In this document: piece by piece, positions 9,421 to 34,665 of the stretch
Position numbering within the stretch: position 1 is the first letter of the stretch
Layout: every line of letters begins with the position of its first letter
Source: Pristiophorus japonicus
Taxonomy: Eukaryota
NCBI RefSeq assembly: GCF_044704955.1
Contig: NC_091998.1
Span: forward strand, 58,900,001-58,964,000
Direction of reading: 5' to 3'
Length of the DNA stretch: 64,000 nucleotides
Notes under the pieces: model-generated
What the model saw: the letters and a program-made list of their open reading frames with translations, nothing else
The model's database searches: none
Told to the model about the DNA's origin: nothing
Position numbers and translations under genes: made by a program

Positions 9421-9474
9421 CTTCTTCTTTGGCAGTCCCTCGAATCGAGGATGACTTGCTTCCATGCCACGAGG
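9421..9474 (-). mobile_element. 54-bp RTE 3'-terminal insertion
   Basis: GGCAGTCCCTCGAATCGAGGATGACTTGCTTCCA matches the RTE terminus. It has a (GAA)n tail on the minus strand and TSD TTAGACTGGAT at 9410-9420 and 9475-9485. Confidence 0.85.
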
Positions 9475-10869
9475 TTAGACTGGATAACCTCTTGTTGGCT
9501 GGTGCAGACATGATGGTAAGTACTTCAGGGAATCTAATACGGCCAGCATAATCTCCTGGACTAGTTTTGATCGCCTGGATGGTTCGGAGAGGAATTTATC
9601 AGATTTTTGCCCCAATTGGTCTGTGTTTCTACCTGTTTTTTTGCCTCTCCCATGGCTGCGGGTGGGGTGGAGTGTAAAATGTTGTGATGCAGGAGGTATG
9701 GCCATTGTGTGGGGCGGACTGGTTGGTCAGGATGCTCTTTACCTCTCCGCCATTGTTCATTGTTCATAGGTTTATAGGTAACCTTCAGGGCTGCTGACCG
9801 AGGGCCATGTGGCTCTTTGTCGGCTGTCACGGACACGATGGTCCGAAATGGCCTCCTTCTGCGCTGTAAATTTCTATGTTTCTATGAATGCCTCCCACTG
9901 CTCTGCCACTGATATACCTTCAAGTCGCTGTTTCCAGTGCACTATGGCCAAATCACCTCTCAGATTAGCAAAGTTAGATTGTCCCCAATTTAGAACTTTT
10001 ATTCCTGGTCTATCCTTGTCCTTTTCCATAACTACCTTAAATCTAACTGAATTATGGTCACTAGTACCTAAATGCTCTCCCAAAGATAAGCAATAACACT
10101 TCCAGTCACAGCCTCGTCCATCAAGACTACACTTGATTAAACCCTGCTGAATATTGGGCCAATCACAGCAACAACAACTTGTATTTATATAGCGCCTTCA
10201 ACGTAGTGCGTGTGCCATTCAAAATTCTGTGCCTGCACGGTTTTTCTATTATACAGCCGGCTCATTGCTTGCTCGGGACATAAAGGGTATGTTGCCCACG
10301 ACCTCCTGGGCTGAGGCAAGAGTGCTGCTACCGAGCCAAGGCTGACACTCAGCAGTATTGAGGGATTGCTGCATTCTTGGTCAGGTGCAGTTTCACAGGT
10401 GCTGACCATATTTCTCTACCTCAACTAAGTGACTATTTTTTATGTATGTATCCCATCAGTGTGGGGGTTATTTTAGCCAAAGGATAAAACAAGGCTCTAA
10501 ATGGGTGCTACGCTAATAAGGCCTGTTTGAAACTCTGGGTTCAGCACACCATTTTGGTCCTAATTGCTGATTACCATAATTGGAACTTGCCTGGAGGCGC
10601 TAAACCAGAAACCAGCAGGTTTAGCATAAGTACTGATTAGACGCAATTTTAGTGAAGCAGTACCTGTGGGCTCCTTGCACCCAATTCCACGGAAGGTGTG
10701 GCGTGCGCAGGCTGGCACACAGCGACATGTTGCAGGATGGCTCAGACTGAGGGAGAGGGCGCACAGGTTTGTAAGAAATTTTTAAACCCAAAAAAATTGC
10801 AAGTTATAAAAGGGATAATAATTCTGCAAAGAGTAGGTCTGCCAACTCAGCAGATGAGGGCTGGCACAC

Positions 10870-13800
10870 ATCAGCCAACAATAACTATATGGCATCTTTA
10901 ATGTAGTGAAACCTCCCAAGGCACTTCACAGGAGAATTACGAGATTTTTAAAAATTTGACACTGAGCTGCATAAGTAGAAATTAGCTCAGGTAACCAAAA
11001 GCTTGGACAAAGAGGTAGGTTTAAGGAGTATCTTGAAGGAGGATAGAGAGGCGGAGAGGTTTAGGCAGGGAGTTCCAGAGCTTAAGGTCTAGGCAACAGA
11101 AGGCATGATCACCAATAGTTGAGCAATTTATAATCAGGGATGCTCAGGAGGGCAGAATCAGAGGAGCACAGATATCTCGGGGGTTGTGGGACTGGAGGAG
11201 ATTACAGAGTTGGGGAGGGGCGAGGCCATGGAGGAATTTGCAAATAAGGATGAAAATTTTGAAATCCAGGCGTTGCTTAACCAGAAGCCAATGTAGGTCA
11301 GCGAATACCGGGTTGATGGGTAAGTGGGACTCGGTACGAGTTAGGACATGGGCAGCCGAGTTTTGGATCAACTCTATTTTACGTAGGGTAGAATGTGGGA
11401 AGCCAGCCAGGAGTGCATTGGAATAGTCAAGTCTAGAAGTAACAAAGGCATGGATGAGGGTTTCAGCAGCGGTTGAGCTGAGGCGGAGCGGAGAGGGGCG
11501 ATGTTATGGAGGTGGAAATAGGCGGTATTAGTTATACTGCAGATATGTGGTCAAAAGCTCATTTCAGGGGCAAATATGACACCAAGGTTGCGAACAGTCT
11601 AGTTCAGCCTCAGACAGAAGTTGGGGAGAGGGATGGAGTCACTGGCTAAGGAACGGAGTTTGTGACAGGGACCGAAAACAATGGCTTCAGTCTTCCCACT
11701 ATTCAATTGAAAAAAGTTCTGCTCATCCGGAACTGGATGTCGGACAAATAGGCCAGCAGTCGGAGGGAGCTGCAGGAGTTCGTTGAGGAGGCGGAGCGGG
11801 ACGTCGGTGAGGCCTACAAGAGGCCAGCAGTTGGAGGGAGCAGCTGCAGTTCGTTGAGGAGGCCAGCCGGTGCAGCTGCAGCGAGGAGGCAAAAAATAAG
11901 TAGAAAGAAATCAAAAGGTGACGTCACAGCCAAGGGGGTAAGTGATTTGCTGGTGATTGGTAAGTAGCTTTTCTTTTTCTTTTCTATATCAGTAAGTAAC
12001 CTTTAGCATTGTTGTTGCCAATTTAAGTTTATCTAAGGGTTAAGTCATGGCAGAACAGCTCGGACACGTGTTATGCTCCTGTACTATGTGGGAAGTCAGG
12101 GACGCTTCTGGTGTCCCTGACGACTACGTGTGCGGGAAGTGCATCTGCCTGCAACTCCTGACAGACCACATTACGCACTGGAGCTGTGGATGGATGAACT
12201 CTGGAGCATGCACGATGCTGAGAATGACATGAATAGCACGTTTAGTGAGTTGGTCTTACCGCAGGTAAAGGGTACACAGCCAGATAGGGAATGGATGACC
12301 AACAGGAAGAGCAGTGCAAGGAAGGTAGTGCAGGGGTCCCCTGCAGTCATCCCCCTGTAAAACAGATACACCGCTTTGGGTACTGTTGAGGGGGATGACT
12401 CATCAGGGGAGGGCAGCAGCAGCCAAGTTCATGACACTGTGGGTGGCTCTGCTGCACAGGAGGGCAGGAAAAAGAGCAGGAAAGCTATAGTGATAGGGGA
12501 TTCAATTGTAAGGGGAATAGATAGATGTTTCTGCGGCCACAACCGAGACTCCAGGATGGTATGTTGCCTCTCTGGTGCAAGGGTCAAGGATGTCTCGGAG
12601 CGGGTGCAGGGCATTCTGAAAAGGGAGAGTGAACAGCCAGTTGCTGTGGTGCATATAGGTACCAACGATATAGGTAAAAAAAAATGGGATGAGGTCCTAC
12701 AAGATGCATTTAGGGAGCTAGAAGCTAAATTAAAAAGTAGGACCTCAAAAATAGTAATCTCAGAATTGCTACCAGTGCCACGTGCTCGTCAGAGTAGGAA
12801 TCGCAGGATAGCTCAGATGAATACGTGGCTTGAGGAGTGGTGCACATGGGAGGGATTCAAATTCCTAGGACATTGGAACCGGTTCTGGGGGAGGTGGGAC
12901 CAGTACAAACCAGACAGTCTGCACCTGGGCAGGACCGGAACCAAATGTCCTAGGGGGAGTGTTTGCTAGTGCTGTTGGGGAGGAGTTAAACTAATAAGGC
13001 AGGGGGATAGGAACCTATGCAGGGAGACAGAGGGAAGTGGAATGGGGGCAGAAGCAAAAGATAGAAAGAAGAAAAGTAAAAGTGGAGGACAGAGAAACCT
13101 AAAGCGAAAAGGGCCACATTACACCAAAATTCTAAAAGGGCAAAGTGTGTGAGAAAGACAAGCCTGAAGGCTCTGTGCCTCAATGCGAGGAGTATTCGGA
13201 ACGAGGTGGACAGACAGCAGTTAACGGGTATGGTGTAATTGGCATCACGGAGACATGGCTCCAGGGTAACCAAGGCTGGGAACTCAACATCCAGGGGTAT
13301 TCATCATTTAGGAAGGTTAGACAGAAAGGAAAAGGAGGCGGGGTGGCACTGCTAGTTAAAGAGGAAATTGATGCAATAGTAAGAAAGGACATTAGCTTGG
13401 ATGATGTGGGATCGATATGGGTGGAGCTACGGAATACCAAGGGGCAGAAACCGCTAGTGGGAGTTGTGTACAGACCACCAAACAGTAGTGTAAGGTTGGG
13501 GACAGCATCAAACAAGAAATTAGGGATGCATGCAATAAAGGTACAGCAGTTATCATGGGTGACTTTAATTTATATATTGATTGGGTTAACCAAACTGGTA
13601 GCAATGTGGTGGAGGAGGATTTCGTGGAGTGTATTAGGGGTGGTTTTCTAGACCAATATGTCGAGGAACCAACTAGGGAGCTGGCCATCCAAGACTGGGT
13701 GATGTGAAATGAGAAAGGACTAATTAGCAATCTTGATGTGCGAGGCCTCTTGGGGAAGAGTGACCATAACATGGTAGAATTCTTTATTAAGATGGAGAGT

Positions 13801-16415
13801 GACACATTTAATTCAGAGACTAGGGTCCTGAACTTAAGAAAAGGTAACTTCGATGGTTTGAGGCGTGAATGGGCTAGAATAGACTGGCAAATGATACTTA
13901 AAGGGTTGACGGTGGATAGGCAATGGCAAACATTTAAAGCTCACATGGATGAACTTTAGCAATTGTACATCCCTGTCTGGCGTAAAAATAAAACGGGGAA
14001 GGTGGCTCAACCGTGGCTAACGAGTGAAATTAAGGATAGTGTTAAATCCAAGGAAGAGGCATATAAATTGGCCAGAAAAAGCAACAAACCTGAGCACTGG
14101 GAGAAATTTAGAATTCAGCAGAGGAGGACAAAGGATTTAATTAAGAGGGGGAAAATAGAGTATGAGAAAAAGCTTGCTGGGAACATAAAAACTGACTGCA
14201 AAAGCTTCTATAGATATGTGAAGAGAAAAAGATTAGTGCAGACAAACCCTTGCAGTCGGATTCAGGTGAATTTATAATGGGGAACAAAGAAATGGCAGAC
14301 CAATTCAACAAATACTTTGATTCTGTCTTCACGAAGGAAGACACAAATAACCTTATGGAAGCACTAGGGGACCGAATGTCTAGTGAAAAGGAGGAACTGA
14401 AGGATATCCTTATTAGGCAGGAAATTATGTTAGGGAAATTGATGAGATTGAAGGCCGATAAATCTCCGGGGCCTGATAGTCTGCATCCCAGAGTACTTAA
14501 GGAAGTGGCCCTAGAAATAGTGGATGCATTGGTGATCATTTTCCAACAGTCTATCGACTCTGGATTAGCTCCTATGGACTGGAGGGTAGCTAATGTAACA
14601 CCACTTTTTAAAAAGGGAGGGAGAGAGAAAGCGGGTAATTATAGACCGGTTAGCCTGACATCAATAGTGGGAGAAATGTTGGAATCAATTATTAAGGATG
14701 AAATAGCAGTGCATTTGGAAAGCAGTGACAGGATCAGTCGAAGTCAGCATGGATTTATGAAGGGGAAATCATGCTTGACAAATTTTCGGGAATTTTTTGT
14801 GGATGTAACGAGTAGAGTGGACAAGGGACAACCAGTGGATGTGGTGTATTTGGACTTTCAAAAGGCTTTTGACAAGGTCCCACATAAGAGATTGGTGTGC
14901 AAAATCAAAGCACATGGTATTGGGGGTAATATACTGACGTGGATAGAGAACTCGATGGCAGACAGGAAGCAGAGAGTCGGGATAAACGGGTGCTTTTCAA
15001 AATGGCAGGCAGTGACTAGTGGAGTGCCGCAGGGCTCAGTGCTGGGTCCCCAGCTCTTTACAATATACATCAATGATTTGGATGAAGGAATTGAGTGTAA
15101 TATTTCCAAGTTTGCAGATGTCACTAAACTGGGTGGTGGTGTGAGCTGTGAGGGGGACGCTAGGAGGCTGCAGGGTGACTTGGACAGGTTAGGTGAGTGG
15201 GCAAATGCATGGCAGATGCATTATAATGTGGATAAATGTGAGGTTATCCACTTTGGGGGCAAAAACGCAAAGACAGAATATTATCTGAATGGCGGCAGAT
15301 TAGGAAAAGGGGAGGTGCAATGAGACCTGGGTGTCATGGTTCATCAGTCATTGAAAGTTGGCATGCAGGTACAGCAGGCGGTGAAGAAGGCAAATGGCAT
15401 GTTGGCCTTCATAGCAAGGGGATTTGAATATAGGAGCAGGGAGGTCTTACTGCAGTTGTACAGGGCCTTGGTGAGGCCTCACCTGGAATATTGTGTTCAG
15501 TTTTGGTCTCCTAATCTGAGGAAGGATGTTCTTGCTATTGAGGGAGTGCAGTGAAGGTTCACCAGACTGGTTCCAGGGGTGGCAGGACTGACGTATGAGG
15601 AGAGACTGGAACAACTGGGCCTTTATACATTGGAGTTTAGAAGGATGAGAGGGGATCTCATAGAAACATATAAGATTCTGATGGGACAGGTTAGATGTGG
15701 GTAGAATGTTCCCGATGTTGGGGAAGTCCAGAACCAGGGGACACAGTCTTAGGATAAGGGGTAGGCCATTTAGGACTGAGATGAGGAGAAACTCTTCACA
15801 GAGAGTTGTTAACCTGTGGAATTCTCTGCCGCAGAGAACTGTTGAGGCCAGTTCATTGGATATATTCAAGAGGGAGTTAGATATGGTCCTTACGGCTAAG
15901 CGGATCAAGGGGTATGAAGAGAAAGCAGGAAAGGGGTACTGAGGGAATAATCAGCCATGATCTTATTGAATGGTGGTGCAGGCTCTAAGGGCCAAATGTC
16001 CTACTCCTGCACCTATTTTCTATGTTTCTATGTTTCTATTTTGGAGACTGTGGAGGGGTCGAGAGAAGTGTTGGTGAGGTAGAGCTGGGTGTCATCAGTG
16101 TACTTGTGGAAACTGACGCTGTGTTTTCGGATGATGTCGCAAAGGGTCAACATGCAGATGAGAAATAGAAGGGGCCAAGGATAGATCCTTGGGGGACACC
16201 AGAGGTAACGATGGGGGGGGGGGGGGCGGGTGGTAAGAGAAGGCATTGCAGGTGATTCTCTGGCTACGATTAGATAGATTAGAATTGAACCAGGCGAGTA
16301 CAGTCCCACCCAGCTGGACGGTGGTGGAGAGGCGTTGGAGAACAATGGAGTGATCAACCGTGACGGCTGCAGACAGGTCAATAAGGACGAAGAGGGATAG
16401 TTTGCCTTTGTCAGT
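10870..16415 (-). mobile_element. L2-clade LINE fragment split by the full-length CR1 (10870-11745 and 16037-16415)
   Basis: Minus-strand peptides YTDDTQLY, QLNSGKTEAIVFG and IQNSAAHVLT..HWL. The element is contiguous in the homologous region 33421-34665. Confidence 0.8.
11748..16038 (+). mobile_element. Near full-length CR1 LINE (5'UTR, ORF1, ORF2, tail), inactivated
   Basis: ORF1 (12047-12969) has an N-terminal Cys cluster and SGNH/GDSL esterase motifs (GDSIVR, HIGTND, DSLHL). ORF2 has APE (ITETWL, VYRPP, SDHN) and RT (QGSVLGP, FADV) motifs. There is a (TTTCTATG)n tail and multiple stops and frameshifts. Confidence 0.93.
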
Positions 16416-16892
16416 CTCCCTAGTATTATTGAGTTATCTTAGCCCAGTCTTTTTAATGACTGATAGTTGCTGGGAAATAAAATGTTTGATTTTATTCATA
16501 TCTATTGAAAACGCCCAAGTTCCTGCTCACTCCTCCCTGCCACCCCTGACCTCATTCCTGCCACTTCAGGCGGGAGACAGATTTGAAAATTAAATTAAGC
16601 CTCCCTCCTCACTATCAGAATATTTTCCAATTACAGTTTTTAGAGTGTTATTCTCCTTTTTGGAGGGAATTAACACCAAACTGTTTGCCAGTGAAATCTT
16701 GTGGTTGATCGTAACTCGGGCAGGATCAGTGCGTAAGGGGAGCCCGGAGCAGGCGGTGCACCTGTACATCATGAAGGAAGTGAGGCCTGGCTGATTTTAA
16801 CCCCTCCCGCACACCATTCCTGCGCAGCGGGGTGGGGTTAACATCGACTCCCCCCGCCACCCCCCACGTGTTTTGTGCCATTCATTTCAACT

Positions 16893-17250
16893 TTGGCTTT
16901 GCCCAATGGCTCAGTTGGAAAAGGCAACATGTAGCTGAGCTGTACAGACCAGAGCGATCTGAGGATTGAGCCCCAGTTTGTGCTGGGTTCGTTGGTCCCA
17001 CTAGGGGTAGCAACAGGGATGTTATGATTGGCCTCACGGCCTCTGGGTTAGGAAGGGTTCCCATTCCCATTCAATGTCCAGCAACCCTTGTGGGAAGGGT
17101 GGGTGTGTTGATGTTTGAGGAGGACAGGATCCGACTCACCTGCTTACTGTCTGGGATCACACATGAGACCACTGGGGCAAGATATCTGAGGGCAGGTACT
17201 GTACCTCAGCAAGAGTCGATGCTGTCAAGAGGGAAGGAAAGGGGAGAATT
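16893..17250 (+). mobile_element. Probable tRNA-derived SINE (copies also at ~35135-35490 and ~53310-53665)
   Basis: A-box-like TGGCTCAGTTGG head. Related diverged segments lie on the minus strand at ~105-245 and in il1b intron 5 (~26610-26830). Confidence 0.45.
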
Positions 17251-18064
17251 GATTTAAAAATGTAAAACCCACAAAGTTGTTGGGGATAATTTTCTGGCAA
17301 TGTGTTCCGAGCTCGCGACTCACCAACAGGGGATCAAATATTGGACGTTTGTGCGCGAACTGCATGATTTACCGACTATTTACATTAATGATTTGTTAAT
17401 CAAGCACAGTGCATCCCATGATTTTTGATGTAACCATTTTACTTATTTTCATAATTTGCAGACTTTTCATCATTTCATGTTGTGGTAAACCTCTCGTGTT
17501 ACACTTTGCGGAGACTAGTGGCAAAGGAATTAAAACTTTCCATTAAGAAAGCAGCATGAGTCATTGTTTTATGGGAGATAGGGCTCAGGTAGGTGAAACA
17601 ACGGCAGCAGTTAGGCCATGAACTCTTTCACCGCTGTTGGTCCCAATTTTAACTCGGGCAGGAATTGGGTGCTTGAGGCAAATGGCAAACCCATTTGAAC
17701 TCAGCCTTACCTACGAGCAGGGTTAAAATCGCCCTGACGTGTATCCGGGGTGGGGCAAGCCTAGATATTATCTGTGTGTGTAATAAAAACAGAAAATGCT
17801 GCAAATATCCAGCAGCTCTTCCGGAACCTGTTCTGAGAAAGGCTAGGTTCATGCGTCCATTGTTCAGCAGAACATGGTCGCCTCGCGTAGCATTAACTTG
17901 GCTTTTCTCATCATCGATTGCGATCGACCTGCTGTGTATTTCAGGCATTATTGTTTCCAGTATTCCTTCTGTTTCTCATTTTAGAGATGGGTGCCACACA
18001 ATTCCTCAGGAATTTACTCAGTGGGCGACTGTTGGAACCCTCATAGAATAGCGCTAGACCTGGT

Positions 18065-18510
18065 TACATAGGATTAGCGGGAGGCCATTCAGCCCCTCGA
18101 GTCTGCTCCGCCATTCACTTAGATCATGGCTGATCTGCACCTCACCTCCATTTCCCTTTCCTCCATATCCCTTGATTCCCATACCTAACAACAATCTCCC
18201 GATCTCAGCCTTGAAAGCTTCAATTAATATCCACAGCCTTTTGGGGGAAGAGAGGTCCAGATTTCTACTATTCTTTGAAAAAGTGCTTCCCGATTTCCCT
18301 CTAATTTAGTTATAATGTTGAGGTTGTGCCTCCTTGTTCAGGACTCGCCTGCCAGAGGAAATAGTTATCTACCCTATCAACCCCTTTAATAATAAACACC
18401 TCGATCAGATCACTTCCTCTGTACTCAAGGGAATACAAGCCAGAGGTATGAAACTTGTCCTCAGAATGGAACCCTCTCAGCCTCGGGATCATTCTGGTGA
18501 ATCTGCGTGG
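18065..18510 (-). mobile_element. Degraded CR1 3' fragment (repeated at ~36310-36755 and ~54480-54925)
   Basis: Minus-strand RRFTRMIPRLRG..GLYSLE..DLIEVF and a CR1 3'UTR hairpin region. Confidence 0.75.
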
Positions 18511-18689
18511 GGTCTTTGCCATTCTGGCCATTTGAATTCCCGTCACATGGGCGGTCGGCTGCTAAAGATACGACCAAAATGGCAACCTGACCAACAAACT
18601 CCAGGGGTGTCACCAATGGCAAGCCCAACAGGAGCAGGTCCGGCTCTAACACATTCGCAGCTAGTGCGAGAAAATGAAACACCTTTAAC

Positions 18690-18957
18690 ATCAGGCACTC
18701 CCACGATAGGTACGGAACAGGTTAGATACAGAGTAATGCTCCCTCTACACTGTCCCATCAAATGCTCCCAGGACAGGTACAGCACGGGGTTAGATACAGA
18801 GTAATGCTCCCTCTACACTGTCCCATCTAACACTCTCAGGGCAGGTACAGCACGGGGTTAGGTACAGAGCAAAGCTCCCTCTACACTGTCCCATTAAACA
18901 CTCCCAGGGCAGGTGCAGCACGAGATTAGATACAGAGTAAAGCTCCCTCTACACTGA
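18690..18957. repeat. 68-bp minisatellite, ~3.7 units (also 36936-37203 and 55107-55374)
   Basis: TTAGATACAGAGTAA(T/A)GCTCCCTCTACACTG recurs at 18722, 18790, 18858 and 18926. Confidence 0.9.
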
Positions 18958-19529
18958 TCTGTCAATGTACGTCCGACCAAACTCTGAGAACATCGCTCAC
19001 TGCCCAATAGAACATTGTTCCATTCCCCATACCTCTCGTCCTGTCGCCCATCTGAGTGAGACTCAGTAAGAAGTTAGGCAATAGCAGCCCATTAGAAACT
19101 GGGTTGAGGCCTCATGTAACAAATAGTTTCACTCCATCAGTTTTAGGTGCATTTGAAGGGGAATTTGTTTTTATTCCTATCATCCAGTCTGTACAGAGTA
19201 AATGATCTGGTGCTCAGCACAATTCAGGAGCAGGCAGCAGACATTTCCCCACAGCAAGATTTTCTATCCATTCATTTTAATGAACAGAAAATCATTTGAT
19301 GTACATGTGCAATTTCACAATTATGTGCTCTCGTCCTGTGACTAGAACTTAGAAGCGGAATTCTTACCCTGATAACTGACTTCCTTCAGTGTGACTCCAA
19401 ATGGTGGAAGGTCAGTCTCTATCCCACTGCACCACCAATGGGCCATCCTCCAATCAGATCAGCTGGCAGACTATGTACTCCTTAAATTAAATGCCTCAAG
19501 GTATACACGGTGAAACACAGAAACTTCGG

Positions 19530-19872
19530 CGTGCACTCCAGTGCTGAGGGAGCGCTGCATTGTTGGAGGTGACGTCTTTCGGATGAGATGTCAAAAAGTC
19601 TACTCTCTCAGGTTGACGTAACAGGCCCTATGGCACTATTTCTAAAAAGAGCAGGGGATTTAACCCCAGTGTCCTGGCCAATATTTATCCCTCAATCAAC
19701 ATCACTAAAACAAATTATCTGGTCATTATCACATTGCTGTTTGTGGAAGTTTGCTGTGTGCAAAAATTGGCCGCATTTCCAACATTACAACAGTGACTAC
19801 ACTTCACAAAGTAAAGCGCATTGGTACCTTCGTGGTCGTGAAAGGCGCTATAGAAATGCAAGTCTTTCTTTA
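19530..19872 (+). mobile_element. 5'-truncated DeuSINE-like SINE (repeated in each unit)
   Basis: Deu-like core GGAGGTG.CGTCTTTCGGATGAGA...ATGGCACTATT and an L2-type tail GGCGCTATAGAAATGCAAGTCTTTCTTT. Confidence 0.7.
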
Positions 19873-20582
19873 TAAAAGGGTAGGAGTGTCTGGGAGTACT
19901 TTCACACCATGGGTCTGTGTACATTTACACAGATTGAGGATGAAATTGCACATGGGCGGTGTCTCACCGGTCTCCCGTTAAACCCTGGGCCCGATGGTCA
20001 GTTCCACTGACTTCATCAGAATGAAATAAAAACAGTGAATGCTGGAAATCTCAGCGGGTCAGTAGAATTGAATATCAGATGCAACGGTCGGCAAATGCGA
20101 TTCTGTCTGTTTTACGTCCCCCCACCACACACCCCATGTGCATCCCCCATCCCATAATAACCTCATGTGGTCCAACTGATCACACGTACTGTGGACGAGC
20201 AGGACGAGCGGGACGAGCTGGGGAAGTTTATTGTGAGTGCTGTCACTGAGCTCAGTGAACGGACATGCTTCCTGGAAACTTTCTCTCAGGGCAAGTGTGA
20301 TCTGTATTGTTCACTCGTCTGTAGCCTCTGCAGAAAGGTGCTGGCCGCTGCAATCCGGGGCGGGGAGGCGATACCGAGCTGTGTACTATTGGGTTACCCC
20401 GAAACATTGAATGGGTGAGGACACATTGCACTTTTAAATGTGGCATTCCAGCTGTTTGAAAGACCGGATACATTTCCGGCTTTTGCAACCCTGAAACTGC
20501 CTCAGAGAATGTCACCTGACACAATAAACTTGGCTCAATAGACCAGCCACTCCTTCTCTTAGCTTGGATATTTGTTTTTTTA

Positions 20583-20950
20583 TGTCAGCTCAGTGGGCAG
20601 CACAGTCGCCTCTGAGTTGTGGGTTCAAGCCCCACTCCAGAAACTTGAGCACATAAATCTAGGCTGACATTGCAGTGCAGTGCTGAGGAAGCTCTGCACT
20701 GTCGGAGGTGCCACCTTTTGGATGAGACATTAAACCGAGAGCCCTCTGCTCTCTCAGGTGGATGTAACAGATCCCATGGCATTATTTGGAAGAACAGTAG
20801 AGGAGTTATTCCCAGTGTTCTGGCCAATATTTATCACTCTGTTTGCTGTTTGTGGGAGCTTGCTGTGCGCAAATTGGCTGCTGCCTTTCCCACATTACAA
20901 CAGTCACTACACTCCAAATGTACTTTGTTGGCTGTAAAACACTTTGAGAC
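20583..20950 (+). mobile_element. tRNA-headed DeuSINE-like SINE (repeated in each unit)
   Basis: Box A-like GCTCAGTGG, box B GGTTCAAGCCC and a Deu-like core; the 3' end abuts the CR1 tail. Confidence 0.72.
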
Positions 20951-22800
20951 ATAGAAACATAGAAAATAGGTGCAGGAGTAGGCTATTCGGCTCTCGAGCC
21001 TGCACCGCCATTCAATAAGATCATGGTTGAACATTCCTTCAGTACCCCTTTCCTGCTTTCTCTCCATACCCCTTGATCCCCTTAACCGTAAGGACCATAT
21101 CTAACTCCCTCTTGAATATATCCAATGAACTGACATCAACAACTCTCTGCGGCAGGGAATTCCACAGGTCAACGCTCTATCAGTGAAGAAGCTTCTCCTC
21201 ATCTCAGTCCTAAATGGCCTATCCCTTATCCTAAGACTATGTCCCCTGGTTCTGGACTTCCCCAACATCAAGAACGTTCTTCCTGCATCTATCCTGTCCA
21301 GTCCCATCAGAATCTTATATGTTTCTATGAGATCCTCTCTCATCCTTCTAAACACCAGTGAATAAAGGCCCAGTTGATCCAGTCTCTCCTCATATGACAG
21401 CCCAGCCATCCCTGGAATCAGTCTGGTGAACCTTCGCTGCACTCCCTCAATAGCAAGAACATCCTTCCTCAGACTAGGAGACCAAAACTGAACACAATAT
21501 TCCAGGTGAGGCCTCACTAAGGCCCTGTACAACTGCAGTAAGACCTCCCTGCTCCTATATTCAAATCCCCTAGCTATGAAGGCTAACATACCATTTGCCT
21601 TCTTTACCGCCTGCTGTAACTGCGTGCCCACTTTCAGTGACTGATGAACCGTGACACCCAGGTCTCATTGCACCTCCCCTTTTTCTAGTCTGCCGCCATT
21701 CAAATAATATTCTGCCTTTGTGTTTTTGCCCCCAAAATGGATAACCCCACATTTATCCACATTATACTGCATCTGCCATGTATTTGCCCACTCACCTAAT
21801 CTGTCCAAGTCACCCGGCATACTCTTAGTGTCCTCCTCACAGCTCACACTGCCACCAAGTTTAGTGTCATCTGCAAACTTGGAGATATTGCACTCTATTC
21901 CTTCATCCAAATCGTGAATGTATATTGTAAAGAGCTGGGATCCCAGCACTGAGCCGTGCGGCACCCAATTAGTAACTGCCTGCCATTCTGAAAAGGACCC
22001 GTTTATCCCGACTCTCTGCTTCCTGTCTGCCAACCAGTTCTCTATCCACGTCAGTACATTACCCCCAATACCACGCGCTTTGATTTTGTACACCAATCTC
22101 TTATGCAGGACCTTGTCAAAAGCCTTTTGAAAGTCCAAATACACCACATCCACTGGTTATCCCTTGTCCACTCTACTAGTTACATCCTCAAAAAATTCCA
22201 GAAGATTCGTCAAGCATGATTTCCCTTTCATAAATTCATGCTGACTTGGTCCGATCCTGTCACTGCTTTCCAAATGGGCTACTATTTGATCCTTAATGAT
22301 TGATTCCAACATTTTCCCCACTACTGATGTCAGGCTACCCAGTCTATAATTACCCGCTTTCTCTCTCCCTCCTTTCTTAAAAAGTGGCGTCACATTAGCT
22401 ACCCTCCCATCCATAGGAACTAATCCAGAGTCGATAGATTGTTGGAAAATGATCACCATTGCATCCACTATTTCTAGGGCCACTTCCTTAAGTACTCTGG
22501 GATGCAGACTATCAGGACCCGAGATTTATCGGCCTTTAATCCCATCAATTTCCCTAACACAATTTCCCGCCTAATAAGGATATCTTTCAGTTCCTCATTC
22601 TCACTAGACCCACTGTCCGCTAGTACATTCGGAAGGTTATTTGTATCTTCCTTTATGAAGACAGAACCGATGTATTGGTTCAATTGGTCTGGCATTTCTT
22701 TGTTCCCCATTATAAATTCACCTGAATCCGACTGCAAGGGACCTACATTTGTCTTTACTAATCTTTTTCTCCTCACATATTTATAGAAGCTTTTGAAGTC
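20948..22800 (-). mobile_element. 5'-truncated CR1 upstream of il1b copy 1
   Basis: RT ORF fragments (LDFQKAFDKV, FADDTKLGG) and a CATAGAAA tail at 20949-20965. Confidence 0.92.
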
Positions 22801-23269
22801 AGATCCTCCCCCCTCCACCGCCCCCCCCCCCACACCCCGCCTCCCTCCACCTTATGGCCCACCAATCCTACCTTGGGCAATACACTGGCATCCCCAGCAC
22901 AGACTGATTCTTTGATTTGCAGCCTCTGGTACTGAGACTGTCTGAATTGAGAAGCACAGCGAAATACTGCAGCTTGCTGGAAATCTGAAAACGCAAAGTG
23001 CGCCTGCTCGCCAGGTCAAGCAGCATGAGGGGGGAAACCCTGCCCAGGCTGCAGCAGGGGTATTGGAGGGACGGAAAATTACAGCTACAGTGTGTGATGT
23101 GGCTGAGGTTCTGGGCCTCAGTATCATTACACTCAGAGGGTAAAATGCTGCCTGGATACCCTCAACACAGAACAAGTGTGGCCTTTACTTGTTAAACCTT
23201 ATGGGGCTTAGCAGGCAGTGAAATGCTTTTGCTTTTCAAACTTTGAATGGGTACCAGTGACGAGAGGGT

Positions 23270-23430
23270 TAATTTCGGGAATATCCACACGCTGAGGAAC
23301 TTCTAAAGACATTTCTGAAATAATGCACTACGCAATCAAAAAAATTCCATCCAGGGGAGACCCGCCCTGAGGGAGGAGCATGTGGAGGGCGCTGTGTATA
23401 AGACACGAGCTGAAGGCTGTTTATCAGCAC
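23270..23430 (+). promoter_or_regulatory. Proximal promoter of il1b copy 1
   Basis: TATAAGA at 23397-23403, ~120 nt before the ATG. Upstream motif matches: kB-like GGGAATATCC (23277-23286) and GGGGAGACCC (23354-23363), ETS/PU.1 core GAGGAA (23294-23299), C/EBP-like TTCTGAAAT and CTACGCAAT (23328-23336), and a GC box CCCGCCC. Motif matches only. Confidence 0.65.
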
Positions 23431-23521
23431 AGCTACACAGTAATCCTGACAATCTTGAGCACACCGCCAGATATAACCTCAAACAACTGAGAGCGTCAAA
23501 TCTACCGCGAAGACACGAGGC

Positions 23522-26500
23522 ATGAAGACTGAGATTGGACCCGTGACCATTCCAATGGTTGATAGTGAATCTCGAAGGTAAGATTTTGTTTAGTGTTTAA
23601 TCCCAAACTGAGCGATGCCAGTCGCTCTCTATCTCTGAATCCTGCCCATGTTTGCAGCAACTAAATGATGCTCGCTCTATCCGCAGAACCTTCAGTCACC
23701 GCCGCCGCAGGAATTCTCGCCTGACTTCTCCGGTCTCCTGCCCCCAGCTCAAGGTAAGAATCTTTCACTGGCATTGTATCAACCTGATATTGGTGTGTGG
23801 GGGGGGGGGGGGGACATGCATTTTGTTACAGTTACAGTAAGCTTGAGTTGGTAAATATTACAATGCTCTGAGCGAGCAGAATTCACAATGCAAATTGAAC
23901 CCTCTTTGGAAATATTTTCTAAGTGCAGAGATTAAATTCCCAGGCCCCACCCCACACTCCAGCCCACCAATCCGGGCTGCGAGAGTTTCCTCTGTCTCAG
24001 CCCTCACAGAACCAGAGACATTTACAGCACGGAGCGAGACCATTTGGCCCATCGAATCCGCGCCGGCCGACCAAGAGCAACCCAGCTTAATCCCACTTTC
24101 CAGCTCTCGGTCCGTAGCCCTGCAGGTTACGGCACTTCACGTGCACATCCAAGTATTTTTTAAATGTGGTGAGGGTTTCTGCCTCTACCACCCTTTCAGG
24201 CAGTGAATTTCAGACCCCCACTACCCTCTGGGTGAAGACATTTCCCCTCAAATCCCCTTTAAACCTGCTACCAGTCACTGTAAAGCTATGCACCCTGGTT
24301 ATTATCCCCTCTGCTAAGGAAACAGGTTCTTCCTATCCACTCTATCTAGGCCCCTCATAATTTTACACACCTCAATTAGGTCTCCCCTCAGCCTCCTCTG
24401 CTCCAAAGAAAACAGACCCAAACTATCCAATCTTCCCTCACAGCTAAAATTCTCCGTCATGTGCTCCAACTTGCCAGCCACAGGGTATCAGTGTGTGGTG
24501 CCTGCAGCGGTTGGGAGGTTCTGTTTCTGCACCAATTGCAGTAATTCCAGGCAATCCCCTGAGTGTATCCTGGGCGCAGCTTCTTGTCCATGGTGTTACA
24601 GAGACATCGCATTCCTTCATCTCAACTCCCACTAAACATGCCTGGGACCCTTGGCATTTCTGGGGGGGCTGGAGGCTGGGGAAAAAAAAGCACATCACCC
24701 GCCAACGAGACTGGACTCACCGAATCTAACTGTTTGCTCATTTTGCAGAGCCTATTTCAAGAGACCTTACCAAAAGTGATGGAGACGAGCACGGCCAATC
24801 ACCGAGCAGACGGAGAGAGCTACCAGCTAGAAATCACCGGGACATCCTCGTCCATAACCACGGCCGGCAATGCAGTACTCTCGCTGGAAAAGGCTGTCAT
24901 GTTGGTCCTGGCTGTTGAAAAATTCAAGAAGGGGTTGGGGCGGCCGTCGAGCAATGGCTGGGGACACAAGGGCACTTCCTTCAAGGGCAGCGAGCTGCTC
25001 GGGAGCTTCAATGCGCTGGTGGAAGGTAAGAAGCGTTTCCTTCCAGTGTTGTCATTGGTGCCATGGCCAACTGTGTGAGCAGTGTGGCACCCGGCATCAT
25101 GGCTGCTGGCTGCTGTGTCAGTGCTTCTGTTGCTGCTCCCTCATTGTTGCTGGCTCAATATAGTGGCATTGCCCACAGCAGCTGTGGCATTCCCATTGGC
25201 GTAAGGATTTGACAAGACAGCCTGGCACCCGGGTAACCCGGGCTGGCCAAGAACTGCAGCCTTGCCAGCGCTGCCCAGAGACATATTACACTTCCAGATT
25301 GATTTTTTTTCTGATCAATCTCCGTTAATTTGCTGCGGTGAATAACTGCTTTCGATTTGTGCCAACAGAAGCCATTACCTGCATCAGCTATGACGACACT
25401 GAACAGGCGAACAGCTCCTACAGGTTCATGCGGAGTGAGCGCACGCAGGTGAAGGACGAGCAAGACAAGTCTCTGATGCTGTCGGACAACCTCCAGCTCG
25501 TCGCCCTGTTCTTGCAGGAGCCGAAGGACGAAGGTGGGTCACCTCAGCCCTTGCTCTTTTCTGGAACACTTCAAACAAGGAAAAGTTGGCCAAAGTATTT
25601 CAATCTTCCTGTTCGGAAGAAGAATTCTCTCCCGGTCACTGTCGCTCTTCCTTGCCCCGCCTCTATTCTCTCCCCGCCTCTCCTGACTCCCTGCACAGAG
25701 GCTGACTCTTGGCTGGGATATATTTCTACAGGAGTCACTCTCCCCCCACCCAGTACCTCACCAACTTGGCCATTCTTACTGTGAGGCCAAAGTGTTGTCA
25801 GGCTATTCAGCCATGGGGGAGGCGCATCATAGCCCAGCCCGACTGATGTATATCCCCAGGATCACTAGATCAGGACCAGGAGCAGGGACCCTGGCCATTT
25901 CATCTGCTCCCTGGCGGAGTGTTGCTGAGGCCAATTGTAATGCACCAGTGCCTGCCTTGGTTAACTTGAACCTGACGACCATCCAGCCTGAATGGCTCAA
26001 TTCCATTCCAGATGGTGCATTTATCCAGTAATAACTGGGGAGCTGCACTTTTAGTAATCTTGGTCTCAATATATTCTGACGACAGTACTAACATGTTCCC
26101 TCTTTAACTTACAGTAACACTGGATGTGAGGTACTACAAGACCGCTGTGAGCACAGAGAATGATTTGCCTGTTGTTCTGGGAATCAACAGGCGGAATCTG
26201 TTCCTCTCTTGCACGGGATCACATGACAGACCCAGGATGCAGGTGGAGGTAAGGGATTGCACAGTTACCTGACAAATATCACGTCATTGCTACCTGGAGG
26301 CTCGGCCTCTTCTGCCAGCCTGCCTGTGTTCATTCTCTACAACTTACATGTGTCAGAGGATTCAGTCCATGTTTTGCAACCTTCCCTTCACTCTGGCTGT
26401 GATGCCCCATGTCCACAATCTGACCAATTTCAACACTGGTTCTGCAGCTTCAGGGAAACCCCCTGCCCATATCTTACAGTCCATCTCCCCTCCTCCTGAA

Positions 26501-27306
26501 GGTGCTGCCTCTCTCTGCGACACTGGTTCCATGGGTGCTGGCCACCCTCCACTCACTCGCCCATGGAGCCAATCCTCAGATAGTGTATCAGAAAGCTATT
26601 TAACCTGAGGGTGCAGCCCCATAGCCCAATCCTAGCCTGGCCTGACCTGATACCCAAACATGTACAATCTCCAGCAGGGATCGCTGCACAGTGATCAGGA
26701 GCTGGAACCCTGGCATTTTTCCCCCGCCCTATCCCAGGAATGCTCTGTCCTCTCTCCCCTTCCTGGCCAAAGTCAGCTGGCTTAGAATAGTCCCGGGATC
26801 AAGGGCAATCACCCTGTGCATTTGCAGACAGTCAGCTGACGCGGAGTCTGGGCGGAGCCCTAATATCAGGGTAGCAGCCCCGCCAGGCACAGGAGCTGAA
26901 TTCCCCAAGAAGGGAATGGGACGGGAAAGGGATGGGCGGCATTAGGTCTGCCGGCTCAGAACCTCCCACCAACATCAAGAAACCAGCCCCGTGCACACCA
27001 ACATATCCTGAAATAAAGACCCTTGCAGCTTTTTCAGCTGAAATATAAATGTATTTCAATGTGTTCCAACCGATGATGTTTCTATTTGCACAGAAATGGG
27101 ACAAGACTCTGCAGAATATCAGCAGTGCTACCGACCTGCTCCGCTTCGTGTTCTATAAGAAGGATTCGAGTTCTGGCGAGGACTTTGAGTTTGAATCGGC
27201 GATGTACCGGGGCTGGTACATCAGCACGTCCAGAAAGAGCAAACAGCCTGTGGACATGGACCGGAAGGAGCACCGCAAGAGAATCACAATCTTCACAGCG
27301 GAGTGA
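23522..27306 (+). CDS. il1b: Interleukin-1 beta-like precursor, copy 1; 6 coding exons join(23522..23577,23687..23753,24749..25025,25369..25533,26115..26248,27094..27306), 303 aa
   Basis: All introns are GT-AG with compatible phases (2,0,1,1,0); the total is 912 nt ending in TGA. The pro-domain has the motif LEKAVMLVLAVEKFKK. Beta-trefoil segments include RSERTQVKDEQDKSLMLSDNLQLVALFLQ, PVVLGINRRNLFLSC and LLRFVFYKKD. The IL-1 family signature region reads FESAMYRGWYISTS...PVDM. The exon 2 acceptor could alternatively be 23711, also in frame. Confidence 0.93.
24005..24455 (-). mobile_element. CR1 3' fragment in il1b intron 2 (also ~42243-42693 and ~60405-60855)
   Basis: Closely matches 3370-3800 (GTGGTGAGGGTT.CTGCCTCTACCACCCTTTCAGGCAGTGA...). 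Confidence 0.85.
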
Positions 27307-27680
27307 GACCGTCCCGAACTCTCCGCAGTTCACAACACAAACCAGGAGTAGTTGGTTTCGGGAGAGCGTGTGTATGTACTAAGTACAGAATTCGCAATCC
27401 ATTGAATTACAATCATTTTGGTCATATTGGACTGAAAAGATTGATGTTGGAATATGTTGGTGAAACACAGGTAGCAATATTTGTTACTGCTTGACTTGTA
27501 TATTATTTGCATTTAAACTTTAGTGAAACGAAGGTGTCGTATTTTTGGATCGTGAGGACTAATGATTGTATAAGTTATTCAATATTATTATTTATTATTT
27601 AAATTATTGATCCATTTATTGCTATACTGGAAGAGAAAGCTTCTTCCTTGGTTGATTAAATTTTGAGTTTTCTTTCAAAC
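27307..27680 (+). terminator. il1b copy 1 3'UTR with AU-rich elements and polyadenylation signal
   Basis: ATTTA at 27511, 27590, 27597 and 27614, including the nonamer TTATTTATT (27588-27596). ATTAAA at 27655-27660 is followed by a T-rich tract. Confidence 0.7.
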
Positions 27681-27886
27681 ACATTAGTTTCCTTTTTCAT
27701 TTTCACACATTTCCTTAAAAATGTTGTTTGGGGTAAAAAAAAATGAAGCACGCACCATTGCTGCAGTAGGAAAAGCTCTTCCATTCCCAACTGATTCTTT
27801 GCAATCTCCACAGTCTCGCGTTTGCTCACTTTTCTCACCCTCTGTTGGGCAGCTCCAGAATATTTGTTTTTACATTCTCTCCTGAA

Positions 27887-28296
27887 GAAAGAAAGACTTC
27901 CATTTCTATCGTCGCTTCCACCAGCTCAGGACGTCCCAAAGCCCTTCGCAGTCAATGAACCATTGTAATGTGGGAAACACAGCAGCCAAATTCCGCACAG
28001 CAAGCTCCAAAAACAGCAGTGCAGATAATGAGCAGATAATCTGATAGTTAGTGATGTTGATTGAGGGATAAATAATGGCCAGGACACCAGGAAAGCTCCC
28101 CCTGCTTTTCTTCAAATGGCACCGTGGGACCTTTTCTATGCACCTGAGAGGTGGGCCCTCACTTTAACCTCTCATTCAAAAGACGGCCCCTCCGGCAGTG
28201 CAGCACTGGGTGTCAGCCTGGATTGTATGCTGAAGTCTCCGGACTGGAGCTCCGGGACTGAGACGAGAGTGCTGCCACTGAGCCAAGGCTGACACT
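27887..28296 (-). mobile_element. DeuSINE-like SINE at the unit junction (also 46128-46537)
   Basis: Reverse complement of the SINE family at 20583. The head GTGTCAGCCTTGGCTCAGTGGCAGCACTC is on the minus strand and the tail is AAAGAAAGAC. Confidence 0.72.
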
Positions 28297-28834
28297 CGGC
28301 AGTATTGGGGGAGGTGCTGCATTCTTGGTCAGGTGCAGTTTCACAGGCGCTGACCATATTTCTCTATCTCAACTAAGTGACCATTCTTTGTGTATGTATA
28401 CCAACAGTGTGGGGGTTGTTTCAGCTAAAGGATAAAACCAGGCTCTAAATGGGTGAAACGCTAATAATAAATGGGTGACAATTTTGGTCCTAATTGCTGA
28501 TGGCCATAATTGGAACTTATGCCTGATTACCATAATTGGAGGCGCTAAACCAGAAACCGTCAGGTTTAGCACAAGTGCTGATTAGACTCAATTTTAGTGA
28601 AGCAGTATATGTGGGCTCCTCGCACCCAATTCCACGGAAGATGAGGCGTGCGCTGACTGGCACACAGTGACACGTTGCAGGATGGCTTGGACTGAGGGAG
28701 GGGGCACGCAGGTTTGTAAGAAATCTTTAAACCCAAAAAAATTGCAAGTTATAAAAGGGATAATAATTCTGCAAAGAGTAGTCTGCCAACTCAACAGATG
28801 AGGGCTCAACAACAACAACAAATTCTATTTATAT

Positions 28835-31800
28835 CATCATCATAGGCAGTCCCTCGGAATCGAGGCAGACTTGCTTCCACTCCTAAAGTGAGTCCTTTGG
28901 TGGCTGAACCATCGTACACGAGAGCCCCAGACCCTGTCACAGGGTGGGACAGACATTTGTCGGGGGAAGTGGGGGTGGGACTGATTTACCACACGCTCCT
29001 TCCGCTGCCTGCGCCTGACCACTTTTACACTCGTGGCGTTGAGATTCGAAGAGCTCAATGCCCTCCCGGATGCACTTTCTCCATCTCAGGCGGTCTTGGG
29101 CCAGGGACTCCCAGGTGTCAGTGGTGATATCGCACTTTACCAGGAAGGCTTTGAGGGTGTCCTTGTAACGTTTCCGCTGCCCAGCTTTGGCTCATTTGCC
29201 GTGAAGTAGCTCCGCATAGAGAAATTGCTTAGGGAGTCTCGTGTCTGGCATGCGAAATATGTGGCCTGCCCAGCGAAGCTGATCGAGTGTGGTCAGTGCT
29301 TCAATGCTGAGAATATTAGCCTGGGCAAGGACACTGATGTTGGTGCACCTGTCTTCCCAGGGGATTTGCAGGATCTTGCGGAGACATCGTTGGTGATATA
29401 TCTCCAGCAACTTAAGGTGTCTTCTGTACATCGTCCATGCCTCTGATCCATTCAGGAGGGTGGCTATTATGACAGCCCTGTAGACCATGAGCTTGGTGAT
29501 AGATTTGAGGGCCTGGTCTTCGAACACTCTTTTCCTCGGGCAGCCAAAGGCTGCACTGGCGCACTGGAGGCGATGTTGAATCTCCACTTCAATGTCTGCC
29601 TTTGTTGATAAAAGGCTCTCGAGGTATGGGAAGTGATCCACATTGTCGAGGGCCGCGCCATTAATCTTGATGACTGGGGGGGCAGTGCTGTGCGGCGAGG
29701 ACAGGCTGGTGGAGGACCTTTATCTTACGGATGTTAAGTGTAAGGCCCATGCTTTCATATGCCTCGGTGAATACATCGACTATATCCTGGAGTTCAGCCT
29801 CAGAACGTGCGCAGGCGCAGGCGTCGTCTGCGTACTGCAGCTCAACAACAGAGGTTGGGATTATCTTGGACCTGGCCTGGAGGCGGCGTAGGTTAAACAG
29901 CTTCGCACTGGTTCTGTAGATCCACTCCAGCGGGGAGCTTGTTGACTGTGAGGTTGAGCATGGCAATGAGGAAGATTGAGAAGAGGGTTGGAGCGATGAC
30001 ACAGCCCTGTTTGACTCTGGTCCGGACGTGGATTGAGTTTGTAATGGAACCAATGGTAAGGATCACGGCCTGCCTGTCGTCGTGGAGCAGGCGAAGGATG
30101 TTGACCAACTTTTGGGGGCATCTAAAATGGAGGAGAATGCTCCACATGCCCTCATGATTGACAATGTCAAAGCCTTTGTAAGGTTGAAAAAGGCCATGTA
30201 TAACGGCTGGCACTGCTCCCTGCATTTTTTCTGCAGCTGTCGCGCTGCAAAGATCATGTCTGTTGTGCCCCATAGAGGTCGAAATCCGCACTCTAATTCT
30301 GGGAGGAGCTCCTCGGCCACAGGGAGAAGTCGATTGAGGAGAACTCTAGCGACAACCTTCCCAGTGGCTGATAACAGGGAGATTCCCCTGTAGTTGCCGC
30401 AGTCGGACTTGACCTTTTTAAAGATGGTCACGATCGCTGCATCTCTGAGATCTCCCGGCACGCTCTCCTCCCTCCAAATGAGAGAGATGAAGTCATGTAT
30501 CCGCACCAACAGCGCCTCTCCACCATACCTTAAAGCTTCAGCAGCAATTCCATCTGCACCCGTAGACATGTTATTTTTGTTCTGTTTTATGGCTTTGCCT
30601 ACCTCATGCAGCACTGGCATTTCACTGAGGTGGTGTCGGGTCGCATTCTGCGGGATGGAGTTGAGGACAATCGAGTCAAAGGCAGAGTCTCGATTGAGGA
30701 GATCTTCAAAGTGCTCCTTCCAGCGGTCCCTGACAGCCCCGGTGTCCTTGATGAGTGTTTCCCCGTTCTTGGCCAGGAGTGGGGTGTGGCCTTGGGAGTT
30801 TGGACCGTAGGCGGCTTTGGACCATAGGCGGCGTTGACTGCAATGAAGAATCCTCGCATATCGTGGCTGTCGGCCAGTTGTTGTATCTCCTGTGCTTTCT
30901 CCATCCACCACCTGTTCTTTAGGTCCCGGGTTTTTTGTTGGACCTCAGCCTTGAGCCGTCTGTAATGTTGTTTTGCAACTCCCGAGTTGGAGTGTTACTT
31001 GAGGCTCAGAAATGCTCTCTGCTTATGATCTATTAGTTCTTGGATCTCCTGATCATTTTTATCAAACCAGTCCTGGTGCTTTCTGGTTGAGTAACCAAGT
31101 GTCTCTTCACAGGCACTGGTTATGGAGACCTGGAGGGAAGACCAAGCACTGTGCGCATTCAGCATCTCAGGGTATTCAAGGCACGCCAGATTAGCTGTGA
31201 GGCACTGGCTGTATACGGCTCTCTTAGCTGGGTTTTTAAGTGTCCTGGTATTAACTTTTTTGGCACTGCTTCTGCTGTCCCCTCTGCTTTGGGGTTATGT
31301 TTATATCGATGATGGATCGGATTAGGCGATGGCCGTCGAGCAGTCGTCAACTTCTGTCATGGCGCGGGTTATGCGCATAACCTTGCGATCCCTGGCTCGG
31401 ATGATGACATCGTCAAGCAGGTGCCAGTGTTTGAAGCAAGGGTGTTGCCACGATGCTCTGTATTGTCCCTCAGGTGGAGCAGGCTGTTGGTGATGAGGAG
31501 TTTATGTTCTAGACATTTTGTCAGGAGTAGGGTACCGCTGGAGTTGGCTTTCGCTACCCCCTCTCGGCCAATCACACCTCCCCAGAGGGCTGAATCTTTG
31601 TCGACCCTGGCATTAAAGTCATCTAGAAGGATCAATTTCTCGCCCATTGGGACGTGGGACAGGGATGTCTCGAGGTTGGAATTAAAAACTCTCTTTAGCC
31701 TCATCCGTTGCATCGAGTGTTGGGGCGTACACACTGATGACAGTGGCGCATTGGTTCTGGGATCGGGTATGGCGAAGAGTCATGAAGTGTTCATTAACCC

Positions 31801-33420: not shown

Positions 33421-34665
33421 CTATTTATATAGCGCCTTTAACATAGTGAAACGTCCCAAGGTGCTTCACAGGAGAATTATGAGATTTTTAACAATTTGAC
33501 ACTGGGCCACATATGTATAAATTAGCTCAGGTAACCAAAAGCTTGGACAAAGAGGTAGGTTTTAAGGAGCATCTTGAAGGAGGAAAGAGAGGCGGAGAAG
33601 TTTAGCCAGGGAGTTTCAGAGCTTAAGGTCTAAGCAATAGAAGACTCGGCCACCAATAGTTGAGCGATTATGATCAGGGATGCTCAAGAGGTCAGAATTA
33701 GAGGAGCACAGACATCTCAGGGGTTGTGGGGCTGGAGGAGATTACAGAGATAAGAGAGTAGATAGGCTATAAAAGGATTTGAAAATAAAGTTGAACATTT
33801 TCAAATCCAGGCATTGCTTAACTGGAAGCCAATGTAGATCAGCAAGTACAGGGTTGATGGGCGAGTGGGACTTGGTGCGAGTTAGAATGAGTTTTGGATC
33901 ACTCTATTTTACCGTAGGGGAGAATGTGGGAGGCCAGCCAGTAGTGGGTTGCAATAGTCAAGTCTAGAGGTAACAAAGGCATGGATGAGGGCTTCAGCAG
34001 TGGAGGAGCTGAGGTAGAGGAAGAGATGAGTGATGTTACGGAAGTGGAAATAGGCGGTCTTCGTTATGCTGCAGATACGTGGTCGAGAGCTCATTTCAGG
34101 GTCAAAGATGACACCAAGGTTGTGAACAGTCTGGTTCAGCCTCAGACAGAAGTTGGGGAGAGGCATGGAGTCAATGGCTGAGGAACGGAGTTTGTGCCTG
34201 GGACTGAAAACAATGGCTTCAGTCTTCCCAATATTCAATTGAAGAAAGTTCTGCTCATCCAGAACTGGATCTTGGACAAGCAGTCTAACATTTTGGAGAC
34301 TGTGGAGGGGTCGAGAGAAGTGTTGGTGAGGTAGAGCTGGGTGTCATCAGCGTACTTGTGGAAACTGACGCTGTGTTTTCGGATGATGTCGCCAAGAGGC
34401 AGCATGTCGATGAGAAATAGGAGGGGGCCAAGGATAGATCCTTGGGGGACACCAGAGGTAACGATGTGGGGGAGGGAAGAGAAGCCATGGCAGGTGATTC
34501 TCTGGCTACGATTAGATAGATTAGAACGGAACCAAACGAGTGCAGTTCCACCCAGCTGGACGGTGGTGGAGAGGCATTGGAGAAGATGGAATGGTCAACC
34601 GTGTCAAAGGCTGCAGACAGGTCAAGAAGGATGAGGAGGGATAGTTTGCCTTTGTCACAGTCACA
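33421..34665 (-). mobile_element. L2-clade LINE 3' fragment (duplicate at 51592-52835)
   Basis: Minus-strand GVPQGSILGP, YADDTQLY and IHAFVTSRLDYCN. Its (GTT)n tail is stranded at 28807-28824 on the other side of the RTE insertion. Confidence 0.85.

Follow-up and report, generated by a model that had tools for sequence, protein, structure and literature searches.

Layered divergence between the units of a tandem il1b array in the Japanese sawshark, Pristiophorus japonicus

Introduction

In the human alpha-globin locus, which is the closest described case, a "gradient of sequence divergence" between the HBA1 and HBA2 duplication units (X, Y and Z boxes) has been attributed to repeated conversions (PMC3161012), and crossing-over between misaligned boxes is reported to alter the copy number (PMC2887799). 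The ends of a tRNA triplet array in Arabidopsis are described as resisting removal by unequal crossing-over and as holding the most divergent sequence (PMC2886086). Alpha- and beta-globins form species-specific clades in sharks whereas rays hold older shared duplicates, and the authors were undecided between turnover and conversion (PMC13023373). One IL1 gene is reported for most anamniotes (PMC9382457). Our study deals with the il1b (IL-1β) genes in a 64,000-nucleotide stretch of the genome of Pristiophorus japonicus (Japanese sawshark; GCF_044704955.1, contig NC_091998.1, positions 58,900,001 to 58,964,000 of the forward strand), which is called the window here and to which all positions refer.

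The sawshark locus is comparable to each of these systems in part. It resembles human alpha-globin in combining an old tandem duplication, near-identical genes and flanks of declining identity; however, its units measure 18.2 kb instead of 4 kb, and they are present in three copies or more. As in the Arabidopsis array, the edge is the most divergent part, although here the divergence lies in the flank of the edge unit whereas the edge gene is intact and near-identical. The IL-1β protein tree has the same shark-versus-ray contrast as the shark globins in another gene family, whereas in il1b the flank DNA also records an old age of the duplication, and in this way bears on the choice between turnover and conversion for one locus. 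With at least three il1b genes, the locus is unlike the anamniotes described with one. No description of a shark il1b array was found in the literature searched, from which most subscription journals, including much of fish immunology, fell outside the scope; the consulted parts of PMC13736523 (including terms in its supplements) and PMC6795676 described none.

Results

Three intact il1b genes with six coding exons each were found in the window. Their start codons are 18235 and 18162 bases apart (a period of about 18.2 kb), and their coding sequences differ pairwise at 1-2 of 912 bases. The units holding copies 1 to 3 are called units 1 to 3, of which unit 1 forms the left edge. Each unit contains an old block with the same order of parts, namely the head of a short interspersed element (SINE), a unique segment A, a fragment of a long interspersed element (LINE) and a unique segment B. 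The SINE label and the clade names L2, CR1 and RTE are presumptive.

Divergence was counted in a three-way alignment of the units, from which a CR1 insertion in unit 1 and an RTE insertion in units 2 and 3 had been taken out. Unit 1 was found to differ from unit 2 at 174/1407 sites (12.4%; Kimura two-parameter (K2P) distance 13.7%) over 10298-11747, left of the CR1 insertion, and at 83/1026 sites (8.1%) over 16038-17085, right of it. The difference falls to 1.5% in a shoulder (17086-18228) and to 0.45% in the block with il1b copy 1 (18229-28246). The values against unit 3 are almost equal and the pattern is unchanged after CpG sites are dropped. Over the whole old flank (2.4 kb, insertions out), the divergence is 10.56% versus 0.45% in the gene region, which is about 24-fold. 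The main step was placed at 17085/17086 by a change-point fit; two segments (257/2433 sites, then 62/11144) were best by the Bayesian information criterion (BIC) and more segments by the Akaike information criterion (AIC). The shoulder is real but small, its score being matched by 5 of 2000 permutations. The two sides of the CR1 insertion also differ in divergence (p ~0.0006), and the older boundary was fitted at 11555, with 11556-11747 (15/192 sites) already like the right side. For the unique part of the first block, the alignment score was 694 versus a maximum of 28 in 200 shuffles. After the step, unit 1 has 25 private changes and the other two units have 13 and 7.

The original prediction had described unit 1 as old diverged spacer joined to a near-identical gene region, with 85-90% identity over 10310-11745, and this agrees with self-BLAST (gaps counted): 10300-10862 matched 28247-28806 at 85.5% and 46488-47047 at 85.3%, and 10886-11747 matched 33426-34279 at 85.9% and 51597-52449 at 86.0%. 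The second diverged match, at 16037-16900, is real, but it had been given the same range and is in fact about 92% identical over 16038-17085. The proposed rise through ~17-18.5 kb turned out to be mainly the single step, followed by the small shoulder up to 18228, and the ~99% identity expected from there through the gene was recovered. Identity along the unit is not uniform even after removal of the CR1 and RTE sequences. On the other hand, homogenisation is not limited to the gene-bearing ~10 kb as had been suggested, since near-identity spans introns, retroelements and spacer over the whole 18.2-kb period, with the spacer about 99% identical between neighbouring copies.

The old block is paralogous between the units and not a dispersed repeat, because it is colinear, has both ends of the LINE fragment in common and is covered by contigs at low depth. 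All units have the same SINE-to-A join and the same 5' truncation point of the LINE, and also the same 3' end of the LINE except for 13 extra bases in unit 1. LINE and SINE sequence makes up about half of the block. Against the rest of the window, segment A matched only the three units, beyond short SINE-like matches. In the DNA-like runs X1 and X3, which represent one sample and possibly the source of the window, the summed contig depth at two places in A2, the unit 2 copy of A, was 38 and 139 (X1) and 41 and 81 (X3), while repeats reach 10^4 to 10^6; contigs were placed at 83% likeness, such that older relatives below 83% would escape, and contig depth is a rough guide. The bin holding A2 has a mean depth of 1993 (X1) and 1613 (X3), which probably comes from the LINE tail at the bin end. 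Contigs of the unit-1 type (16467-16846, 0 differences) and of the unit-2 type (26 and 22 differences) are present in both runs. Their depths in X1/X3 were 12.1/6.8 for the unit-1 type, 39.3/30.2 for the unit-2 type and 43-53/27-38 for shared gene-region contigs; among the contigs listed, these ratios hint at four or five copies, though depth is no copy number. The concern that the match at 10310-10870 might be a repeat found genome-wide is thereby answered, as the behaviour of the block is not that of a high-copy repeat.

Further layers were found within the array. Units 2 and 3 do not differ uniformly, with 1.7% over 32518-34616 versus 55/15476 sites elsewhere, and the scan score of this patch was matched by none of 300 permutations. 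Together, the shoulder and this patch point to more than one round of exchange. Divergence layers near 13%, 8%, 1.5-2% and 0.3-0.5% are therefore present. The protein database holds four sawshark IL-1β proteins, all of 303 amino acids and 1-5 residues apart, two of which are not encoded in the window; if all four come from one genome, at least five genes exist. One of them, P0007, differs from il1b copy 2 at four residues and has A79 and F254 as in other species (A79 in 3/4 and F254 in 4/4 of the aligned other species), which makes it a further intermediate layer. Contigs from both X1 and X3 have letters at 18020 and 18041 that are absent from all three window copies, hence a further copy or allele exists.

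An old, diverged il1b copy was looked for in several ways. No tblastn match to a diverged remnant was obtained left of gene 1 (query without exon 6), no diverged sawshark IL-1β cluster was found in the protein database, and none of 34 candidates for short sawshark IL-1β pieces was retained at E 1e-8. The absence fits erasure of the old paralogue, and also a gene that was amplified recently within flanks duplicated long ago.

For comparison with other sharks and rays, a quick IL-1β tree was built from 43 of 46 fetched database proteins, leaving out two partial Chiloscyllium records and one catshark isoform. Multiple distinct records were present in 5 of 14 sharks, and each group formed a species clade: sawshark (4 records, support 100), Cetorhinus (5, 96), Carcharodon (3, 95), Mustelus (3, 97) and Chiloscyllium punctatum (2, 97). 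The sawshark copies are 1-5/303 residues apart and the nearest other species is 69% identical; the copies of Cetorhinus and Carcharodon are 0-6 residues apart within a species and 24-29/304 between them. In 4 of 9 rays (Hypanus, Hemitrygon and two Mobula), two copies 29-37 residues apart were found to group across species (88, 96). The records of this two-lineage IL-1β in stingrays and mantas are P0014, P0018, P0030-P0034 and P0048, which group across genera, unlike those of sharks. Apart from Pristis, the other 13 species have a single record or just isoform- or allele-like records; as identical copies would collapse, a single record is no proof of a single gene. In Pristis pectinata, four 301-aa "isoforms" (P0009, P0042-P0044), 3-21 residues apart and of two classes, look like two tandem genes merged in one annotation. 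The species clades fit concerted evolution and repeated recent duplication alike.

Assignment of the genes to IL-1β follows from the IL1 domain (PF00340), the intact spliced frame and IL-1β as nearest relatives. Exon 3 is a 100% match to a Pristiophorus japonicus IL-1β record, and the sawshark proteins are 62-69% identical to most other shark and ray IL-1β and 48-51% to those of carpet sharks. Three predicted GT..AG introns were skipped by joints in runs X5 and X6, whose kind is unrecorded but RNA-like, and none in the DNA-like runs, which supports the gene model. A scan of 1-35000 against Rfam gave no matches.

The features of the locus are collected in Table 1.

Table 1. Features of the il1b array in the window.
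Feature	Position	Strand	Remarks
Head of tRNA-type SINE	10298..10350	-	Left limit of unit 1 homology; aligned to 28245-28296
A1, old paralogous low-copy flank	10351..10862		58/546 sites differ from unit 2 over 10298-10862
LINE fragment (L2-like) common to all units, 3' part	10863..11747	-	116/861 sites differ from unit 2
CR1-like LINE, near full-length, unit 1 only	11748..16037	+	GDSL esterase, endonuclease and RVT_1 matches
Shared LINE fragment, 5' part	16038..16410	-	26/361 sites differ; truncated at the point common to all units
B1, old paralogous flank	16411..17085		7-9% different; ends at main identity step
Shoulder, intermediate divergence	17086..18228		17/1143 sites
Homogenised block holding gene 1	18229..28246		45/10001 sites differ from unit 2
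il1b copy 1	23522..27306	+	303 aa; translation = database protein P0005; Pfam IL1
il1b copy 1, coding exons	23522-23577, 23687-23753, 24749-25025, 25369-25533, 26115-26248, 27094-27306	+	
Full SINE across join of gene 1 3' flank and A2	27888..28296	-	
A2, counterpart of A1	28245..28812		1/566 sites differs from A3
RTE-like LINE, units 2 and 3 only	28825..33430	-	RVT_1 match; 10-base target duplication at 28825 and 33421
Older patch, unit 2 versus 3	32518..34616		34/2015 sites differ
Unit 2 counterpart of shared LINE fragment and B1	33421..35328		
il1b copy 2, intact	41757..45547	+	Translation = database protein P0003
A3, start of unit 3	46486..47053		
il1b copy 3, intact	59919..63714	+	Protein same as copy 1 (P0005)

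The CR1-like LINE of unit 1 interrupts the shared LINE fragment, and unit 2 has the corresponding empty site at ~34280-34290. This CR1 has 23/965 private changes versus two sibling copies and looks younger than the split of B1 and B2. In units 2 and 3, the interrupting element is the RTE-like one. The shared fragment has an RVT_1 match on the unit 2 copy. Its codon-position counts in three partly overlapping frames (12/7/3, 15/13/12 and 25/12/25) gave no third-position excess, but this test is weak (a control pair of independent CR1 copies gave 24/22/33) and was not used. The idea that the large insertions acted as barriers to exchange was rejected, as the main step at 17085 lies 1 kb from the CR1 and the older boundary at 11555.

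Several other repeats were observed. Immediately left of the array, 3358-10100 is densely filled with CR1-like fragments of either orientation, which hide any older leftward extension of the homology. At 10165-10297, the place of the full SINE body of unit 2 is taken in unit 1 by ~90 unrelated bases and a LINE-type tail, which marks either the original breakpoint or rearrangement at a later time. A 41-base minisatellite close to the 5' end of the RTE-like element has 5.7 copies in unit 2 (32641-32872) and 3.7 in unit 3 (50888-51039). About 4.6 kb upstream of il1b, a 68-base unit is repeated four times (at 18689-18956, 36935-37202 and 55106-55373); its family has a very high copy number and is deep in both RNA-like runs too.

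Discussion

We consider it probable that an old tandem duplication was followed by repeated homogenisation of the copies. In an old head-to-tail duplication, the copied unit would have begun with the SINE head at 10298 and included il1b together with its 3' flank. The CR1-like element would then have entered the edge copy and the RTE-like element the inner copy. Misaligned units would have recombined repeatedly, by unequal crossing-over and possibly also by some conversion, which would have built an array with the 18.2-kb period and probably at least five genes. In the edge unit, a position could be renewed only if an exchange began to the left of it, and the outermost sequence would for this reason keep the oldest divergence. 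Such a process may have produced the staircase at the edge, from ~13% and 8% through the step at 17.09 kb to 1.5% and 0.45%. We infer the inclusion of the gene in the old duplication, a larger role for crossing-over than for conversion, and the order of events. A2 directly adjoins the 3' flank of gene 1, which is what a whole-unit tandem duplication predicts. Unequal crossing-over also accounts for both the near-identity over 18.2 kb and the steps in copy number, whereas a lone 10-kb conversion, as had been proposed, does neither. The proposal that the duplication is much older than the gene identity suggests is upheld by the flank, and its extension to the gene is probable. In a toy model with crossing-over alone, a staircase like that of the window appeared in 0, 1, 4 and 24% of the 106-150 usable runs for each of four exchange rates (arbitrary parameters), an example being 14, 9, 3.8, 1.2, 0.5. 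Only relative ages are used here; absolute dating with a pedigree mutation rate of 7x10^-10 per generation (PMC10587355) was rejected, as the old layer would then be an implausible ~10^8 generations old.

Several observations weigh against this reconstruction. In 83-100% of the matching toy runs, the last gene stays >6% diverged, yet no sawshark protein diverged by >6% is found in the database; conversion, loss or non-annotation must therefore be added, or else only the flank is old. The BIC favours a single step, as one recent event would give, and the right end of the array lies outside the 64-kb window. Moreover, a conversion-type test on the three copies (4 homopolymer sites dropped from 49) marked 23408-24415, where 7/8 variable sites are private to unit 2, at p 0.036, or 0.11 corrected over three pairs; p 0.008 was reached only with the window size picked post hoc. 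Units 1 and 3 possibly exchanged recently there. In this segment they share letters including the protein residue I5, whereas V5 is found in unit 2 and in the remaining database proteins.

According to one alternative, just the 2.4-kb stretch of A, LINE and B is old and was present twice, flanking one il1b gene, which was amplified recently by unequal crossing-over; a second gene never existed or was lost early, and the array would reflect rapid turnover with no long-term concerted evolution of the gene. We regard this as unlikely but worth serious attention, as it would explain the one dominant step, the failure to find a diverged il1b in the window (query without exon 6) or the protein database, and the one listed protein of Heptranchias, the nearest squalomorph in the data. 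The shoulder, the unit 2/3 patch and P0007 speak for at least one earlier round of exchange instead, and a flank-only duplication placed right behind the gene seems less simple than a whole-unit tandem duplication.

A further alternative, close to the original prediction, makes unit 1 alone the hybrid: either a long gene conversion happened once, or a single deletion crossover took out an older il1b that lay behind A1-B1. The excess of private changes after the step in unit 1 suits it, and so does gene 1, which has T79 and Y254 like units 2 and 3 and unlike P0007, and groups with the inner copies. However, a single event cannot yield several layers, a deletion crossover would require prior amplification of inner units or else A2-B2 would be lost, and neither the region left of gene 1 (query without exon 6) nor the protein database holds a trace of the removed paralogue; we find this explanation improbable. 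Nor is unit 1 necessarily the mosaic. The same sequence can equally be written with A1-B1 first and then repeats of (C, gene, D, A2, RTE, L2, B2), and the window cannot polarise between a native gene 1 with hybrid units 2 and 3 and a hybrid unit 1.

That the matches are independent copies of a dispersed repeat, or that the step is an assembly join, is very improbable: although about half of the block is LINE or SINE, one A2 place (139/81) stands above its neighbours such that a few further relatives may exist, and among the contigs listed none spans the step with unit-1 letters, this is opposed by three shared junctions with colinear unique flanks, the low depth of contigs placed on A and B at 83% likeness, the presence of contigs of both flank types, and private changes of unit 1 on either side of the step that thin gradually.

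With old duplication and repeated homogenisation as the preferred reading, a wider proposal can be made tentatively, and we hold it as possible rather than likely: for much of the history of sharks and rays, il1b may have been a tandem array of several copies, with sharks erasing the differences between copies by recombination and stingrays and mantas letting two diverge. If true, the old flank of the sawshark would be direct DNA evidence that species-specific shark clades come from homogenised old arrays, and fresh repeated duplication would be disfavoured, which is the choice left open for the shark globins.

The mechanism is already textbook, and the feature is real, well measured and of a known type. 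It means that shark gene copies which are 99.5% identical need not be young, and that coding sequence alone may mislead the dating or counting of duplications. IL-1β, which is usually called single-copy in fishes, is multi-copy in 5/14 sharks and 4/9 rays by the protein data. The array edges in existing assemblies offer a cheap test of turnover versus concerted evolution.

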